DNA from: Narcine bancroftii
Lineage: Eukaryota
NCBI RefSeq assembly: GCF_036971445.1
Contig: NC_091473.1
Coordinates: 216,876,001 to 216,940,000 of the forward strand
DNA length: 64,000 nt
Direction: 5' to 3'
Part shown: piece after piece, positions 5,774 to 52,424 of the stretch
How positions within the stretch are numbered: the stretch's first letter is position 1
Layout of the letters: each line of letters begins with the position of its first letter
The notes under the pieces: generated by a model
Told to the model about the DNA's origin: nothing
What the model saw: only the letters and a program-made list of their open reading frames with translations
Database searches by the model: none
Position numbers and translations under genes: made by a program

Positions 5774-8700
5774 ATGGTTACGTTGAACTATATGACTTTA
5801 AATATTAATGGAATACATAACCAAATCAAAAAGAAGAAACTGTTAAATTTACTGTAAAAAAGAAAAAAACGATATAGCATTCGTACAAGAAACACATCTA
5901 ACTGAAGTGGAACGCAAGAAATTAAAGAGAGATTGGATAGGACATGTAACAGCAGCATCATATAATTCAAAAGCCAGAGGAGTAGCTATATTAATCAATA
6001 AAAATGTACCAATCAAAATAGAAGAGGAAATAATAGATCCAGCAGGGAGATATGTAATGATAAAATGTCAGATATATTCAGAATTTTGGAATTTACTCAA
6101 TGTATACGCACCTAATGAAGAAGATCAAAAATTTATGCAAGATATCTTTTTGAAGATAGCAGATACGCAAGGGAACATACTAATAGGAGGGGATTTTAAC
6201 CTTAATTTGGACTCAAACATGGATAAAACTGGAAAAAAAACTAACAAAAGAACAAAGTAACCAAATTATAATTAAATCGATGCAAGAAATGCAACTTTTG
6301 GATATATGGAGGAAACAACACCCAAAGGAAAAGGAATATTCATATTATTCAGGTAGACATAAAACATACTCAAGGATAGACCTATTCCTGTTATCAGCCC
6401 ACATTCAAGGGAGAGTTAGGAAAACGGAATATAAAGCTAGACTATTATCGGAGCACTCACCCCTGTTATTGGCAATAGATCTAGAGGACATCCCACCAAG
6501 AATGTATAGATGGAGATTAAACTCCATCCTACTTAAAAGACAGGATTTTAGAGAATTCATTGAATGACAAATTAAAATGTACTTTGAAATAAATACGGAA
6601 TCAGCGAAAGATAAGTTTATACTATGGGACGCAATGAAAATGTTCATCAGAGGGCAAATAATAAGTTATGTAACTAAGATGAAGAAGGACGACAATCGGG
6701 AAACAGAACAGTTGGAAAGGGAAATAACAAATATAGAAAAAGAATTAGCAATAAAGGAAGATACAACTAAAAGAAGAGAATTGGCAGGTAAAAAATAAAA
6801 TATGAAACACTACAAACATTTAAGGTGGAGAAGAACATAATGAAGAAAACAGAAATATTATGAGCTAGGAGAAAAAATGCACAAAATTCTAGCGTGGCAG
6901 CTTAAGACAGAACAAACTAAAAGAATGGTATTGGCATTAAGGAAAAAGGACAAACAAATTACATATAATCCAACGGAGATCAATGAAAACTTCAGTGAAT
7001 TCTACGAGCAGCTATTTCAAACTGAAACCGAAGGGAAAGAAGACAAAATAAATGAATTTCTAACTAAAATTGAACTACTGAAATTACAAACAGAGAAGCA
7101 AAATAAATTAATAAAACCATTTGAAATAGAAGAATTACAGGAGAAATTTAAAAAACTACCGAACAATAAAACACCAGAGGATGGATTCCCAATAGAATTC
7201 TATAAAACATTTAAAGACTTATTAATTCCTTCCCTTCTGGAAGTAATCAACCAGATTGATAAAACACAAAGTATACCAGATTCATGCAAAACACCAATAA
7301 TTACAGTAATACCAAAGACAGGGAAAGATCCACTTGCACCAGCGTCATATAAACCAATATCTTTACTTAACACAGATTATAAGATAATAGCTAAACTATT
7401 AGCAAACAGATTGGCCGACTATGTACCAAAAATAATAAATCTAGACCAAACTAGATTTATTAAGAAAAGAGGAACACTGGACAATATCTGTAAGTTAATT
7501 AACTTAATCCATGCAGTACAAGGAAACAAGACGCCAACAGTGGCAGTTGCCTTAGACTCAGAGAAAGCCTTTGACAGAGTAGAATGGAATTATTTATTCA
7601 AAGTACTACAAAAATTCAGCCTACCAGAGAAATATATTAATTGGATTAAAGCATTATATAAGGGGCCATTGGCGAATGTGACAGTAAATGGATATATATC
7701 AAAACAATTTAACTTAAGCAGATCAACAAGGCAGGGATGTCCACTATCTCCCTCACTGTTCGTGTTAGCTATAGAACCACTAGCAGAATTGATAAGAACA
7801 GAAAATAAAATAAGAGGGATAAAAATAAAAGAGAAGGAATAGAGAATCAGTCTATTTGCAGATGACGTTATAATATACTTAACAGAACCAGAAATATCAA
7901 TAAAAGAATTACATAGGAAATTGAAGGAATATGGAGAAGTTTCGGGTACAAGATCAACGCAAATAAAAGTGAAGCAATGCCAATGAATAATGCGGATTTC
8001 TCAAAGTTTAAGAAAGATCGCCATTTAGATGGCAAACGCAAGCAATGCGATACCTAGGTATAAAACTAAATAAAAACCTCGGCCATCTATATAAATGCAA
8101 TTACCATCCATTAATGAAAAAATTACAAGATGACTTAGAGCATTGGAAAGGCTTACCACTAACACTGATAGGAAGGATAAACTGTATTAAAATGAACATT
8201 TTCCCAAGGATACAATACCCATTTCAGTCATTACCAATACGCCTAACAGAGAAGAATTAACAGAGAAATTCTTCAAGGAGTTAAAGAAAATAATAAGGAA
8301 TTTTTTATGGAAAGGGGGGGGGGGAAACTGAGGATAGTTCTAGATAAATTAACAGAATGGTACAAACAAGGAGGCTTACAACTACCAAACTTTAAAAATT
8401 ATTATAGAGCCGCACAATTAAGATACCTATCACATTTTTATCAAACAAGGGAAAAACCAGATTGGACCAGATTAGAACTAGATAAAATAGGGGAGAAGAT
8501 ACCTGAACATATACTATATAAATGGGATGAAAAATTGGTGCAACGTAGGAATTCACTGGTATTGCATCATCTGCTCAACATTTGGAAGAAGATTCATGTA
8601 GAAAGGAATAAAACAAATTACCAACTACCAAAACTAATATTGACGCAAAATCAGCTAATCCCTTTTACAATAGATAACCTTTCCTTTAGAGAATGGGAGA

Positions 8701-9572
8701 GAAAAGGGATCAAAAGAATAAAAAATTGTTTTTCGGGAGGTAAATTATTGTCCTTTGAACAAATGAAGGATAAATATAATATAACTCACAGTACAATGTT
8801 GGCATACTACCAACTGAAAACCTACTTGAAGGACAAATTGGGAAACAGTCTGAGGTTACCAGAAGAAAGAAATTTTGAATATGTGATTACAGACACAATG
8901 ATAATTAAAAAATTTGTAACAAACATGTACATCAAACTGCAAGAAAAGCAGAATGAGGAAACAAATGGTAAACCTAAACAAAAATGGGAACAAGATCTAA
9001 ACATAAAGATAAAGAATGAAACATGGGAGAAGCTATTCTCCGGAACTACGAGAAATACAATAAACACGAGGTTACGCATGATACAATATAATAGGCTATA
9101 CATTACACCCCAAAAGTTAAATAGATGGGATCCAACAGTATCAGACAGATGTTTTTGTTGTAAAAAGGAAACGGGAACAACAATTGATGCAATTTGGACA
9201 TGTGAGAAAGTGGAAAAAGTTTGGGAAGATCTAAACCAGATATTAAATAAAATCACAAAAAGCAATATACCAAAAAACCCAGAGATCTTCCTCCTAAGTA
9301 ATATAAGAAGCAATGAATTTGGACTCGATTTGGATGGAGCACAAAAAAGATTTGTTATGATAGCCCTAGCTGTAGCAAAAGAATTTATTATGTCAACCTG
9401 GAAATTAGAAGACAACTTGAGAATACAACAATGGTATATAGAAATGAATAAATGTATTCCATTAGAAAAAAAAACATATAATTTAAGAAATAATATAACA
9501 ATATTCAAACAAATATGGGAGCCATACATGAAATACGATAGAGAAATCCTACCGTGGACATCTATCACCTAA
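5774..9572 (+). pseudogene. L1 ORF2p (APE endonuclease, RT, Cys-rich C-terminus), disrupted
   Basis: NVYAPN, GGDFN, SRID, PISLLNTDYKI, EKAFDRV, TRQGCPLSP, LFADD and a C-terminal CxxC motif; several stops and frameshifts. Confidence 0.93.
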
Positions 9573-11122: not shown

Positions 11123-12024
11123 TCAGCAATGGATGCGTTTAGAAATGAGAATGAAGGGGGATTTCACCACGTCCTTCAACTGGTCCCGGAACCTGGTCTG
11201 TGTGACGGCGTAGAGAGCAGTGTTGGTGCAACAGCTCAGGAGCTGCATCATAAAACACAACTCCCGCAGAGGTGCAGGTGGAAACATAGACAGATATCCC
11301 AGAAAACGCATTCGGTTCCAAATGTAATAAAGGATAAACAGTGCCCACAAGAGGATGAAATTCCCGGAAATGACCAACAATAAAATAAGAGATTTTCTAC
11401 GACTCGCCATTTCTGGATCATGGGCACCTTCCCCACTGCTGGGAGCCCGAAGTCTCCTGCGGGCTCGACTCGCCACTAACACGTGTCTGATGGTCAGAGC
11501 ATTGAACAGGAGAACCAGGATGAACGGGATTATCGGGGTGAGGATGTAATGGAGAAGCTCAATCGATCCCCAGATTTGCGATTCCAGAAGTCTGGCTCTC
11601 GGCATGCAAAACCAGCGGGCGTAAGCGAGGGAATATTCCGAGGTGAGCATGAAACACCAAAAAATGTTCTTTAAACAGCTGAGAGCGGTCACTGTCCCCA
11701 GAACCACCAGCGCCGTTCTCTCGGTACAATAGTTAGTCTTCAGTTTCTGACAACAGATGGAGACGAATCGATCGAAGGTGAAGGTGACGGTGAACCAGAC
11801 AGAACAGTCGGTGGCGGTGTACAGCAGGAAGGCGTGGACATCACACACGCGGATGGACCGCACGAAACCAAAGTAATCCCGATATGCAATTGGAATCTTC
11901 CTCAAAATCACGTCCATGAAAACGACCATTAGATCCGTGGCTGCCATGGCAACCAGGTAGCGAGTGACACCTTTGGCGAGTCCGCACTTTCCCCGGGACA
12001 GGATCACAATGGTCACAGTGTTCA
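11123..12024 (-). CDS. GPR139/GPR142-like class A GPCR paralog 1, exon 2 (TM1 end to TM7); spliced protein ~377 aa
   Basis: Intact ORF with N1.50 (PVN after splicing), LVAMAATDL, FTFDRF, TM3/ECL2 cysteines and CCTNTALY; AG acceptor at 12025-12026. Confidence 0.9.
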
Positions 12025-14067: not shown

Positions 14068-14299
14068 CGGGAACGGCGACGACGGCGAGGGTGGGATAGT
14101 AAATCAGTTTAAAGGCTCGCAGTGCATAGTAGATCCGAAGGTTTAATGTGAGCCAGTCATCAGAAGCCAAAATATATTGGGCCATCCAGAAGACATTCTT
14201 CTTCTTGCCGCTCAGGCTCCAAACGGCTGTTCGCAGATTCAGATCCATTGCAGTTGCAGCCTCCTCTGTCGTCCCCAGGATCCTCCCTCTGCTCTCCAT
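14068..14299 (-). CDS. GPR139-like paralog 1, exon 1 (N-terminus and start of TM1)
   Basis: MESRGR...KKKNVFWMAQY...IYYPTLAVVAVP; donor G|GTGAGT at 14068/14067, phase 1, in frame with exon 2. Confidence 0.85.
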
Positions 14300-15496: not shown

Positions 15497-18400
15497 ATCC
15501 ACCGGGAGAGGAGGGACTTCCAATAGAATTCTATAAAACATTTAAAGACTTATTAATTCCTCCTCTCTTGGAAGTAATGAACCAGATGGAAGAAACATAA
15601 AACATGCCAGATTCATGCAAAACAGCAATAATTACAGTAATACCAAAGACGGGGAAAGATCCACTAACACCAGCATCATGTAGACCAATATCTCTACTCA
15701 ACACAGATTATAAGATAATAGAAAAACTATTAGAAAACAGATTGCCGACTGTATACCAAAAATAGTAAAACTAGATCAAACTGGATTTATTAAGAAAAGA
15801 GGAACACTGGACAATATCTGTAAGTTAATTAACTTAATCCATGCAGTACAAGGAAACAAGACGCCAACAGTGGCAGTTGCCTTAGACTCAGAGAAAGCCT
15901 TTGACAGAGTAGAATGGAATTATTTATTCAAAGTACTACAGAGGTTCAACCTACCAGAGTAATGTTTTAATTGGATTAAAGCATTATATAAGGGACCATT
16001 GGCGAAGATGATAATAAATGAATATATATATCAAACCAATTTAAATTAAGCAGGTCAACTAGGCAGGGATGTCCACTATCTCCCTCAGTGTTCGTGTTAG
16101 CTATAGAACCCTTGGCAGGACTGATAAGCACAGAAAATATAATAAGAGGGATAAAAATAAAAGAGAAGGAATATAAAATAACTCTATTTGCAGATGATGT
16201 CATAGTATACCTAACAGAACCAGAATTATCAATAAAATAATTACATAAGATATTGAAGGAATATGGAGAAATATTGGGGTACAAGATCAATGCAAATAAA
16301 AGTGAAGCAATGCCAATGAATAATGTAGATTTCACAAAGTTTAAGAAATGGCAAACACAAGCAATCCGATACCTAGGTATTCAACTAGATAATAATCTAG
16401 GCCATCTATACAAATTAAATTATCAACCATTAATGAATAAATTACAAAATGACTTAGAACATTGGAAAGATTTACCACTAACACTGATAGGAAGGGTAAA
16501 TGGCATTAAAATTAATATCTTCCCAAGGATACAATACCTATTTCAATCATTACCAATTCACCTAACAGAGAAATTCTTCAAGGAGCTAAAGAAAATAATA
16601 AGGAAATTCTTATGGAAAGGGGGGGGGGGAAACGAGGATAGTGCTAGTTAAATTAACAGAATGGTACAAACAAGGAGGCTTACAGCTACCAAACTTTAAG
16701 AATTATTATAGAGAAGCACAATTAAGAAATCTATCAGATATTTATCAAACAAGGGAAAAATCAGATTGGACCAGATTAGAGCTAGATAAAATAGGGGAGA
16801 AGGTACCTGAACATATACTATATAAATGGGATAAAAAGCTGGTGCAACATAGGAATTCAGCAGTACTGCACCATCTGCTCAACATTTGGAAGAAGATTCA
16901 CGTAGAAAGGAAAAAAACAAATGATCAACTACCAAAATTAATATTGATGCAAAAGCAACTAATCCCTTTCACAATAGATAACGTTTCCTTTAGAGAATGG
17001 GAGAGAAAAGGGATCAAAAGAATAGAAAATTGTTTTTCGGAAAATAAATTATTATCTTTTGAACAAATGAAGTACAAATATGGTATAACTCACGATACAA
17101 TGTTTGCATACCACCAACTGAAAACCTACTTGATGGATAAATTGGGAAGCAGGCTGAGGTTACCAAAAGGACGCAGTTTTGAATATGTGATTACAGACAC
17201 AAATATAATTTAAAAATTTATAACAAACATGTACATCAAACTGCAAGAGAAAGAGAACGAGGAAATAAGCTGTAAACCCAAACAAAAGTGGGAACAAGAT
17301 CTAAACATAAAGAGAAATACAATAAATGCAACGTTATGCATGATGCAATATAATTGGTTACACAGGCTATACAACATGCCCCAAAAGTTAAATAAAGGGG
17401 ACCCAACAGTATCAGATAGAGGTTTTTGCTGCAAGAAGGAAATGGGAGCAACAGTACATGCAATTTGGGCATGTGAGAAAGTGGAAAAGTTTTGGGAAGA
17501 TCTAAATCAGGTATTAAATAAAATCACAAAAAGCAACATAACAAAACATCCAGAGATTTTTCTTCTAAGTAATATTCTCTTTGGCTTGGCTTTGTGGACA
17601 AAGATTTATGGAGGGGTAATGTCCACGTCAGCTGCAGGCTCGTTTGTGGCTGACAAGTCTGATGCGGGACAGGCAGACACGGTTGCAGCAGTTGCAGGGG
17701 AAAATTGGTGGGTTGGGGTTGGGTGTTGGGTTTTTCCTCCTTTGTCTTTTGTCAGTGAGGTGAGCTCTGCGCTCTTCTTCAAAGGAGGTTGCTGCCCGCC
17801 GAACCGTGAGGCACCAAGATGCACAGATGGAGGCGATATCAGCCCACTGGCGGTGGTCAATGTGGCAGGCACCAAGAGATTTCTTTAGGCAGTCCTTGTA
17901 CCTCTTATTTGGTGCACCTCTGTCATGGTGGCCAGTGGAGAGCTCGCCATATAACACGATCTTGGGAAGGCGATGGACCTCCATTCAGGAGACATGACCT
18001 ACCCAGCGCAGTTGGATCTTCAGCAGCATGGATTCGATGCTGTCAGCCTCTGCCATCTCGAGTACTTCGATGTTGGGGATGAAGTCGCTCCAATGAATGT
18101 TGAGGATGTAGCGGAGACAACGCTGGTGGAAGCGTTCTAGGAGCCATAGGTGATGCCGGTAGAGGACCCATATTTCGGAGCCGAACAGGAGTGTGGGTAT
18201 GACAACGGCTCTGTATACGCTTATCTTTGTGAGGTTTTTCAGTTGGTTGTTTTTCCAGACTCTTTTGTGTAGTCTTCCAAAGGCGCTATTTGCCTTGGCG
18301 AGTCTGTTGTCTATCTCATTGTCGATCCTTGCATCTGATGAAATGGTGCAGCCGAGATAGGTAAACTGGTTGACCGTTTTGAGATTTGTGTGCCCGATGG

Positions 18401-22559: not shown

Positions 22560-23461
22560 TCAGCAATGGGTGTGTTTTGAAATAAAAGTGAAGGGGGATT
22601 TCACCAAGTCCTTGAACTGGTCCCGGAACCTGGTCTGGGTGACAGCGTAGAGAGCAGTGTTGGTGCAACAGCTCAGGAGCTGCATCATGAAACATAGGTC
22701 TCGCATCGGTTCAGGTGGAAACACGGACAAATACCCCAGTAAACGCATTCGGTTCCAGATATAAAAAATAGAAAATAACGCCCACAAGACGATAAAATTC
22801 CCGGAGATGGCCAGCAATAAAATGAGAGCTTTCCTGCGACTCGCCATTTCTGGATCATGGGCACCTTCTCCGCTGCTGGGAGCCCGGAGTCTCCTGCGGG
22901 CTCGACTCGCCACTAACACGTGTCTAATGGTCAGAGCATTGAACAGGAGAACCAGGATGAACGGGATTATCGGGGTGAGGATGTGATGAAGAAGCTCAAT
23001 CGATCCCCAGATTTGCGATTCCAGAAGTCTGGCTCTCGGCATGCAAAGCCAGCGGGCGTAAGCGAGGGAATATTCCGAGGTGAGCATGAAACACCAGATA
23101 ATGTTCTTTAAGCAGGTGAGAGCGGTCACTGTCCCCAGAACCACCAGCGCCGTTCTCTCGGTACAATAGTTAGTCTTCAGTTTCTGACAACAGATGGAGA
23201 CGAATCGATCGAAGGTGAAGGTGACGGTGAACCAGACAGAACAGTCGGTGGCGGTGTACAGCAGGAAGGCGTGGACATCACACACGCGGATGGACCGCAC
23301 GAAACCAAAGTAATCCCGATATGCAATTGGAATCTGCCTCAATATCACGTCCATGAAAACAACGATCAAATCCGTGGCTGCCATGGCAACCAGGTAGCGA
23401 GTGACACCTTTGGCGAGACCGCATTTTCCCCGGGACAGGATCACAATGGTCATTATATTCA
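22560..23461 (-). CDS. GPR139/GPR142-like GPCR paralog 2, exon 2; spliced protein ~377 aa
   Basis: Intact ORF paralogous to 11123-12024; AG acceptor at 23462-23463. Confidence 0.9.
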
Positions 23462-25578: not shown

Positions 25579-25810
25579 CAGGAACAGCGACCAGGGCGAG
25601 GATGGGATAGTAAATCAGTTTGAAGGTCCGCAGCACATACTGGACCCGAAGGTTTAACGTCAGCCAGTCATCAGAAGCCAAAATGTATTGGGCCATCCAG
25701 AAGACATTCTTCCTCTTGCCGCTCAGGCTCCACTTGACTGTTGGCAGATTCAGATCGATTCCAGTCGGAGCCTCCTCTGTGGTCCCCAAGTTCCTTCCTC
25801 TGCTCTCCAT
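25579..25810 (-). CDS. GPR139-like paralog 2, exon 1
   Basis: MESRGRNLG...KRKNVFWMAQY...IYYPILALVAVP; donor G|GTGAGT at 25579/25578; 232 nt, the same length as in paralog 1. Confidence 0.87.
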
Positions 25811-30506: not shown

Positions 30507-31408
30507 TCAGCAATGGATGTATCTTGCAAGAAGCATGAAAGGGTATTTGACCACATCCTTCAGTTGCTCCTGGAACTTGGTCTGCGTGACGGCATAGAGA
30601 GCAGTGTTTGTGCAACAGTTCAAGAGCTGCAACATAAAGCATAAGTCTCGCATAGGTTCAGGTGGAAACACGGAGACATTACCCAGAAAACGCATTCGGT
30701 TCCATGCATAATAAATAGTAAACAGCGCCCACAAGATGATGAAATTCGCAGAGATGACCAACAGTAATATGAGCGATTTCCTCCGATTTGCCATTTCTGG
30801 GTCATGGGCGCAGTCCCCACGACTTGCAGCGTGGAGTCTCCTGCGGGCTCGACTCGCCACTAACACGTGTCTGATGGTCAGAGCATTGAACAGGAGAACC
30901 AGGATGAACGGGATTACAGGGGTGAGGATGTAATGAAGAAGCTCAATCCACCCCCAGATTTGCGATTCCAGAAGTCTGGCTCTCGGCATGCAAAACCAGC
31001 GGGCGTAAGCGAGGGAATATTCCGAGGTGAGCATGAAACACCAGTAAATGTTCTTTAAGCAGCTGAGAGCGGTCACTGTCCCCAGAACCACCAGCGCCGT
31101 TCTCTCGGTACAATAGTTAGTCTTCAGTTTCTGACAACAGATGGAGACGAATCGATCGAAGGTGAAGGTGACGGTGAACCAGACAGAACAGTCGGTGGCG
31201 GTGTACAGCAGGAAGGCGTGGACATCACACACGCGGATGGACCGCACGAAACCAAAGTAATCCCGATATGCAATTGGAATCTGCCTCAATATCACGTTGA
31301 GAAGAACGAGGCTGAGATCCGCCGCTGCCATAGCAACCAAGTATCGAGTGACAGTTTTGGAGAGACCGCATTTCCCCCGGGACATGATCACAATTGTTAA
31401 TATATTCA
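30507..31408 (-). CDS. GPR139/GPR142-like GPCR paralog 3, exon 2; spliced protein ~366 aa
   Basis: Intact paralogous ORF; AG acceptor at 31409-31410. Confidence 0.9.
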
Positions 31409-51528: not shown

Positions 51529-52424
51529 CTAGAAGCGTTTTAGAATAAGTGCGAGGGGAGATTTCACCACGTCCTTGAACTGGTCCCGGAACTTGGTCTG
51601 GGTGACGGCGTAGAGAGCAGTGTTGGTGCAACAGCTCAGGAGCTGCAGTAGAAAGCACAACTCGCGAATGGATTCGGGTGGAAACACGGACACGTGCACC
51701 AAAAACCGCACCCGGTTCCAAATGTAATAGACAGTAAACAACCCCCACAAAAGGATAAAATTCCAGGAGATGACCAGTAATAAAATGAGCGACTTCCTAC
51801 GACTCGCCATTTCTGGATCGTGGGCACCTTCCCCACTGCTGGGAGCTCGGAGTCTCCTGCGGGCTCGACTCGCCACTAACACGTGTCTGATAGTTAAAGC
51901 ATTGAGCAGGAGAACCAGGATGAACGGGATTACAGGGGTGAGGATGTAATGGAGAAGCTCAAGCAATCCGCAGACTCGCGATTCCAGAAGTCTGGCTCTC
52001 GGCATGCAAAGCCAGCGGGCGTAAGCGAGGGAATATTCCGAGGTGAGCATGAAACACCAAAAAATGTTCTTTAAGCAGCTGAGAGCGGTCACTGTCCCCA
52101 GAACCACCAGCGCCGTTCTCTCGGTACAATACCTAGTTTTCAGTTTCTGACAACAAATGGCGACGAATCGATCGAAGGTGAAGGTGACGGTGAACCAGAC
52201 AGAACAGTCGGTGGCGGTGTACAGCAGGAAGGCGTGGACATCACACACGCGGATGGACCGCACGAAACCAAAGTAATCCCGATATGCAATTGGAATCTTC
52301 ATCAATATCAGGTCGAGGAAAACGACTATTAGATCTGTCGTGGCCATGGCAACCAGGTAGCGAGTGACACCTTTGGACAGACCGCATTTTCCTCGCGACA
52401 GGATCACAATTGTCACGATGTTCA
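51529..52424 (-). CDS. GPR139/GPR142-like GPCR paralog 4, exon 2; up to ~407 aa spliced
   Basis: Intact paralogous ORF ending LKRF*; AG acceptor at 52425-52426. Confidence 0.9.

Follow-up and report, generated by a model that had tools for sequence, protein, structure and literature searches.

Partial concerted evolution of the central coding tract in a cluster of GPR139-like receptor genes of the electric ray Narcine bancroftii

Clustered receptor genes of Narcine bancroftii carry an identical stretch in the middle of their second exon, next to coding sequence that has diverged and introns that barely align, and the question is which process keeps this central part uniform and whether it serves a common ligand. 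We analysed a stretch of 64,000 nucleotides (the window), which contains four class A GPCR genes on the minus strand, each with two exons and an intact reading frame, separated by GT-AG introns of 2.0-8.1 kb. Codons are numbered from the Met of MAQ.

14068..14299, minus strand: gene 1 exon 1, coding part, starting with MESRG as in record P0121; phase-1 donor G/GTGAGT
11123..12024, minus strand: gene 1 exon 2 (end of TM1 to stop), with the 7tm_1 domain
11762..11898, minus strand: 137-bp block identical in the four genes (end of TM2, ECL1, TM3 through DRF)
11579..11898, minus strand: strongly homogenised core, codons 83-188 (ECL1, TM3, ICL2, TM4, ECL2); 3/96 synonymous-capable sites variable
11451..11578, minus strand: partly homogenised shoulder, TM5 to the start of ICL3; pS 0.116 against 0.3-0.57 further 3'
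25579..25810, minus strand: gene 2 exon 1, coding part
22560..23461, minus strand: gene 2 exon 2, with the block at 23199-23335; the protein is P0001
39515..39632, minus strand: gene 3 exon 1, from the MAQ Met
30507..31408, minus strand: gene 3 exon 2, with the block at 31146-31282
56474..56591, minus strand: gene 4 exon 1, from the MAQ Met
51529..52424, minus strand: gene 4 exon 2, with the block at 52162-52298; the protein matches P0127
14068-14470, 25579-25970, 39515-39910 and 56474-56870, minus strand: regions with the upstream motif

The 7tm_1 domain was found in all four exon-2 products (59-66 bits, against a curated cut-off of 30.5), and the structure predicted from an alignment of 80 of 136 proteins has seven TM helices and helix 8 (pLDDT 75.5), with fold matches at probability 1.0 in a structure search. 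The class A anchors N1.50, D2.50, C3.25, D-R3.50-F, P5.50, W6.48 and N7.49-x-x-x-Y are present, in a residue numbering that we take to be the standard one. An additional N-terminal helix is predicted before TM1. Among the four genes the 270-bp stretch preceding MAQ is 65-81% alike, and each gene has kept in it an AT-rich box, then GGGGTTAA and a motif resembling TAATTAAC, possibly a promoter element common to the four genes. Just upstream of gene 4 there is an inverted repeat of ~560 bp (57709-58264 and 59608-60171, arms 1.3 kb apart, perfect stretches of 279 and 99 bp), which may be a young inverted duplication or transposon ends.

The products of the window genes match N. bancroftii records named 'probable G-protein coupled receptor 139' by NCBI. 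A protein search gave 2289 matches among 5147 candidates; the best 120 of these 2289 all came from sharks, skates or rays, including 46 Heptranchias and 45 Heterodontus clusters, and the 118 that were named were all called 'probable GPR139'. A cluster look-up of 10 proteins yielded five further Narcine paralogs on the same 257.7-Mb contig, bringing the array to nine copies, and completed the close skate co-ortholog set, which then counted nine proteins. The five additional paralogs carry the same core protein, and three of them are short models named 'prolactin-releasing peptide receptor-like'. DNA-level comparisons rest on 4 of the 9 Narcine copies and nine-copy comparisons on protein.

Human GPR139 was the best solved-structure match by sequence (E=7.8e-6, 29 bits), and its structure 7vug ranked 15 by fold with 21% identity, so that by fold GPR139 is no nearer to the ray receptors than chemokine, opioid or somatostatin receptors. 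The agonist-site residues of GPR139 are F3x33, H5x43, W6x48 and N7x38, according to the accessible part of PMC5430874, and their ray equivalents are Y108, H198, W266 and F297. The W at 6.48 and the H at 5x43 are thus common to the ray receptors and vertebrate GPR139/GPR142; in contrast, the ray receptors carry F where GPR139 has N271. Orthology to GPR139 was rejected on this E value and on the partial difference of the agonist-site residues and, judging from sequence and fold, the name on the ray genes is a nearest-hit label.

The original prediction that a 137-bp block is shared letter by letter by the four genes was correct, and the block contains 12 CpGs, where about that number had been proposed, 8 of them with the C at the third codon position. 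The identity claimed to extend over 219 bp in genes 1-3 (11680-11898) also holds, the longest pairwise identical tracts being 223 bp (genes 1 and 3) and 234 bp (genes 2 and 3), and the ECL2 block (codons 165-188) differs, as had been said, at a single base (11611). The label 'ECL1-TM3' given to the 137-bp block was appropriate for the loop and the helix, both of which it contains, but it was incomplete, because on the predicted structure the block also covers the last turn of TM2 and ends at the intracellular DRF; the 219-bp extension would bring in ICL2 and most of TM4.

Synonymous-capable sites were variable at 0/44 positions in the block and 3/96 in codons 83-188, against 60/137 outside (Fisher p=1.4e-13). 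In 100,000 permutations no window was equally quiet (minimum of 10 variable sites, against the 3 observed), and the longest invariant run (45) was matched in 2 of 200,000 permutations. For pairs of genes pS came to 0 within the block but to 0.25-0.45 across TM1-2 and 0.37-0.57 across codons 231-337, in agreement with the divergence of TM1-2 and TM6-7 described earlier; pooled pS stood at 0.03 for the core and 0.12 for codons 189-230, with 0.31-0.57 everywhere else, exon 1 included. Synonymous divergence compared in windows, the check proposed with the original prediction, is therefore far from uniform along exon 2. The introns, said to barely align, were alignable in only 2 of the 6 pairs, in patches of 78-151 bp at ~70%, and the 3' flanks of the four genes likewise only in short patches. 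In a comparison for GC-biased conversion, the unpolarised GC count at 4-fold sites of gene 1 was 42/53 in the core and 44/74 in the exon-2 flanks (54-68% across the four genes).

Such an identity might come from the assembly itself. Read-derived contigs were compared from 4 of the 16 listed runs, and two studies give evidence on the block. In run X1, possibly the source sample, 11867-11873 is covered by one contig alone, with a depth of 72, in contrast to the 6 contigs with other letters found at the flank sites 11201 and 11287. In run X6, from another study and under another organism label, 11771-11898 is represented with 0 other letters by a contig of depth 14.8, against ~3-5 for flank contigs, which stops exactly at the block edge; 11441-11795 likewise shows 0 other letters there. 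Moreover, the single-base differences within the core are distributed patchily between the copies. Contigs can conceal single-base variants, those of Logan lose rare ones, and the tract lengths of 100-234 bp are on the scale of short reads and are also met in LINEs, all of which would suit a polishing or collapse artefact. However, the block is present as one collapsed contig in the contigs of two studies, which excludes wholesale polishing, and we regard an artefact as highly improbable.

Identity of the block across distant species, which had been named as a sign of constraint on the DNA or RNA (a structure or a regulatory element), was not what we found. The block is identical in the differently labelled X6, but this organism looks very close to organism A in the flanks too. 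The nine skate co-ortholog proteins differ within the block; organisms C and D, whose contigs were used for the presence of differences alone, have other letters at 11867/11873, and their core pieces, among those listed, are ~8-17% different. The fold of the block RNA was unremarkable (z=0.13). The differences in skates and in C and D, together with this fold, practically exclude ultraconservation, the least probable of the explanations considered here.

The core does evolve. Protein distance in the core was 0.027 within the nine Narcine copies and 0.203 between Narcine and skates, against 0.204 and 0.334, respectively, in the flanks, and the ratio of columns variable within Narcine to columns fixed between Narcine and skate proteins was 8/8 in the core and 59/4 in the flanks (Fisher p=1.6e-4). 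In the core tree the Narcine stem has a length of 0.14 (support 100/99) and the tips 0-0.02; in the 3' tree the tips reach 0.21 and the Narcine clade is without support. Every one of the nine Narcine copies carries G92, V102, F105, L145, A153 and C163, six residues with a frequency of at most 0.03 in 126 other proteins. The divergence from skates and the fixation of rare residues in every copy indicate that changes in the core arise and spread throughout the array. Together with the synonymous contrast and the read-derived contigs, this upholds the recurrent gene conversion of the original prediction, and interlocus conversion is very probably the mechanism of core homogenisation.

From one part of the gene to another, the 31 informative sites favour different topologies (runs p=0.015), and two proteins encoded outside the window look chimeric: P0122 has a gene-2-like N-terminus joined to a largely gene-1-like C-terminus, and P0123 has the N-terminus of gene 1 with gene-2-like residues in outer TM2. 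Such combinations of halves of different genes would also be produced by unequal crossing-over in the conserved core, with chimeric genes arising from different old lineages and crossover driving their turnover. Long identical flanks would then be expected, yet among the four window genes little of the introns and 3' regions can be aligned; crossing-over and conversion moreover come from one repair pathway, which makes this a variant of conversion rather than an alternative, and as the main process we find it very unlikely.

The pattern was compared with that of shark paralogs using the ratio of core to flank distance, in a test whose pairs are non-independent, whose borders were set on Narcine and whose lists are mostly 90% cluster representatives of top hits. 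A ratio below 0.35 was obtained in 28 of 29 Narcine pairs, 2 of 792 in Heptranchias, 0 of 945 in Heterodontus and 0 of 17 in Pristiophorus (the skate sets gave no pair in range), with medians of 0.14 in Narcine and 0.97-1.09 in the sharks. The absence of the pattern from shark paralogs indicates that geometry alone does not force homogenisation of the core.

Three frameshifted, same-strand LINE copies, 86-89% alike overall, lie between the receptor genes and contain identical tracts, each one at a different place.

7454..7610 (partner from 15784), plus strand: 157-bp tract identical in two broken LINE copies; 0/20,000 permutations
16517..16625 (partner from 41468), plus strand: 109-bp tract identical in LINE copies; 19/20,000 permutations
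9187-9286 (partner 42439): 100-bp LINE tract (a/c pair); 500/20,000 permutations, failing correction for 10 tests

Of the 10 repeat pairs tested, 6 showed no excess identical run, and the remaining non-LINE pair was the inverted repeat at 57.7-60.2 kb. The LINE tracts likely reflect neutral conversion and, as these elements are dead, they suggest that conversion here seems to strike homologous neighbours whatever their function.

We therefore favour, with moderate confidence, a conversion driven by homology and anchored on the most constrained segment of the family (TM3), without being aimed at the pocket. A GPR139-like receptor of cartilaginous fishes would have been duplicated in tandem long ago, and its copies would swap tracts of ~100-250 bp by non-allelic gene conversion, exon 2 acting as a 900-bp island of homology between intron and 3' DNA that do not align. 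Purifying selection on the protein would have left TM3-ICL2 least diverged, so that pairing keeps working there, and every conversion would restore identity and thereby favour the next. Exon 1 and the edges of exon 2 would have drifted below the identity required for pairing, and ECL1 and ECL2 would be swept along as neighbours of TM3-TM4. As we infer it, this feedback would work without any selection acting on the conversion events.

Among windows of 45 codons, conservation across the family is highest at codons 99-143, in the middle of the core. A toy model of identity-dependent conversion in a bounded exon, with no selection on conversion, was tuned over three parameter grids and gave homogenised islands in 0/480 and 1/420 runs of the first two (80 of these 900 runs being no-conversion controls) and in 150/384 of the third. 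The island centre lay at or before codon 135 in 10/71 cases with the constraint of the family and in 1/79 with uniform constraint, the observed centre being 133. The model suggests sufficiency in kind and is not a proof; the observed flank polymorphism (0.45) was above that of the highest simulated island (0.44).

This position at the edge of the neutral simulations is one of several points that suit the main rival to the homology-driven reading, namely conversion with selected borders, in which conversion left to itself would make the whole of exon 2 uniform and selection removes those tracts that overwrite functional differences in outer TM2 and TM6-ECL3-TM7. What is held in common would then be the ligand-entrance half (ECL1, TM3, ECL2), as the original prediction had it, a TM3-TM4 dimer or a G-protein surface. 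At its 5' end the tract breaks off very abruptly, at codon 82, and adjoins variable pocket-rim residues of TM2, which calls for caution about the homology-driven reading, and the tract sits 5' of the exon centre. Further, ECL1 and ECL2 are variable loops in the family and, as had been noticed, unusually uniform in Narcine (p-distance 0.04 and 0.02 among the 9 paralogs, against 0.42 and 0.55 among 40 family members sampled), and comparable peaks of divergence are known in opsins, as far as the accessible part of PMC3924837 reports. On the other hand, pooled flank dN/dS was 0.10-0.45 and did not exceed 1 in any region (four sequences, with little power), the synonymous divergence of exon 1 (N-terminus and TM1) equals that of the exon-2 flanks, and dead LINEs seem to be converted as well.

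The pocket itself can be examined by position. On the model, the core (codons 83-188) would comprise the end of TM2, ECL1, the whole of TM3 with DRF, ICL2, TM4 and ECL2. We assumed a list of 37 typical class A pocket positions, placed by motif anchors rather than by a liganded structure. Twelve of these 37 presumed positions lie in the core; none is variable, and across 117 other proteins 9 of these 12 are conserved to 90% or more. Among the 25 outside, 11 are variable, with charge changes at 2.57 and 2.61, which again would suit selected borders, and 14 are invariant, including W6.48, F6.51, Y6.55, N6.58, R6.59, F7.39 and Q7.42, amid pS of 0.3-0.6. In TM6, in contrast, pocket positions vary less (1/7) than non-pocket ones (9/15), which speaks against a defended rim. 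Weighing these points, we consider selected borders possible but rather unlikely.

The proposal that conversion preserves a shared ligand pocket is not supported as an explanation, since the tract also spans DRF, ICL2 and TM4 and contains only the 12 positions mentioned. None of the six Narcine-specific core residues is on the presumed pocket list. Of the equivalents of the GPR139 agonist residues only 3x33 is in the core, and the other three, outside it, are invariant in the 9 Narcine and 9 skate proteins; W266 and F297 are invariant in regions with pS of 0.3-0.6, so that purifying selection, and not conversion, keeps them. The nine receptors probably share a ligand class, but ordinary purifying selection would account for the shared pocket without conversion, and it is doubtful that the tract is aimed at the pocket as its purpose.

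In a combined reading, cartilaginous fishes would have a large and possibly sensory family of GPR139-like receptors with diversifying extracellular loops, and the ray cluster would do the reverse: conversion would hold one half of the ligand entrance (ECL1, TM3 and ECL2) uniform in the nine copies, and selection would keep the TM2 and TM6-ECL3-TM7 rim different. We think it unlikely; if true, the receptors would all bind the same chemical core and discriminate between its substituents, and the tract borders would map the specificity residues of an orphan family.

The family in which the array is embedded has a polar, near-invariant deep pocket (D2.57, R2.61, H3.28, D3.37, E5.39, H5.42, R6.59 and Q7.42) and a variable N-terminus and ECL1-3. 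With many genes per shark or ray species, this large GPR139-like family is the lead most worth following, as a candidate unrecognised sensory or metabolite receptor repertoire. Literature searches over freely accessible main texts found no published description or ligand of it and no report on the ray cluster. Term look-ups in the accessible text of PMC12208981, PMC11979771, PMC8455134 and PMC6504862 found no description of the family, which a supplementary gene-family table of some genome paper could still list; in the accessible part of the whale shark paper, GPCRs are described as scarce in cartilaginous fishes (PMC8455134). As a separate observation, the Heptranchias proteins P0004, P0005, P0061, P0067, P0022, P0024 and P0094 have identical runs of 100-148 aa from TM5 to TM6-7 or the C-terminus and differ in their N-terminal halves, a mirror image of the electric-ray pattern.

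In the ray cluster, the partial concerted evolution of a GPCR array is seen cleanly and with unusually sharp limits, beside apparently converted dead LINEs that serve as an internal neutral control. Its homogenised core distorts trees, gene counts and read mapping for the ray receptor family, and candidate functional differences among the paralogs are narrowed to residues of TM2 and TM6-TM7.

The mechanism is a textbook one, and the ray array is another instance of the partial conversion already known in GPCRs. The accessible parts of the sources describe CCR2/CCR5 and CCR1/CCR3 with partial conversion, mainly of TM regions and in some lineages of ECL1, ECL2 or ECL3 (PMC2880985). Like these mammalian pairs, the ray genes are clustered class A paralogs with partial conversion; unlike them, they form an array of 9 copies with one fixed central tract in all and flank pS of up to 0.57. 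In chicken FFAR2, conversion has affected 24 of 26 paralogs and positive selection has acted near the groove, and the authors infer conservation of ligand-binding residues (PMC4453067, as far as its accessible text goes), so that the idea of a conversion that conserves ligand residues is already published there. Both are lineage-specific GPCR arrays with pervasive conversion, although the ray tract is restricted to the middle of the exon and there is no dN/dS above 1. Finally, in the red/green opsins conversion extends to the introns, what resists it is a narrow peak under selection, and neutral and selected models of conversion are reviewed in the same source (PMC3924837, accessible part). 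As in the opsins, converted parts of the ray genes that have diverged little adjoin strongly diverged ones, but the ray introns no longer take part in conversion and a wide region resists it, which is compatible with a loss of homology as much as with selection.
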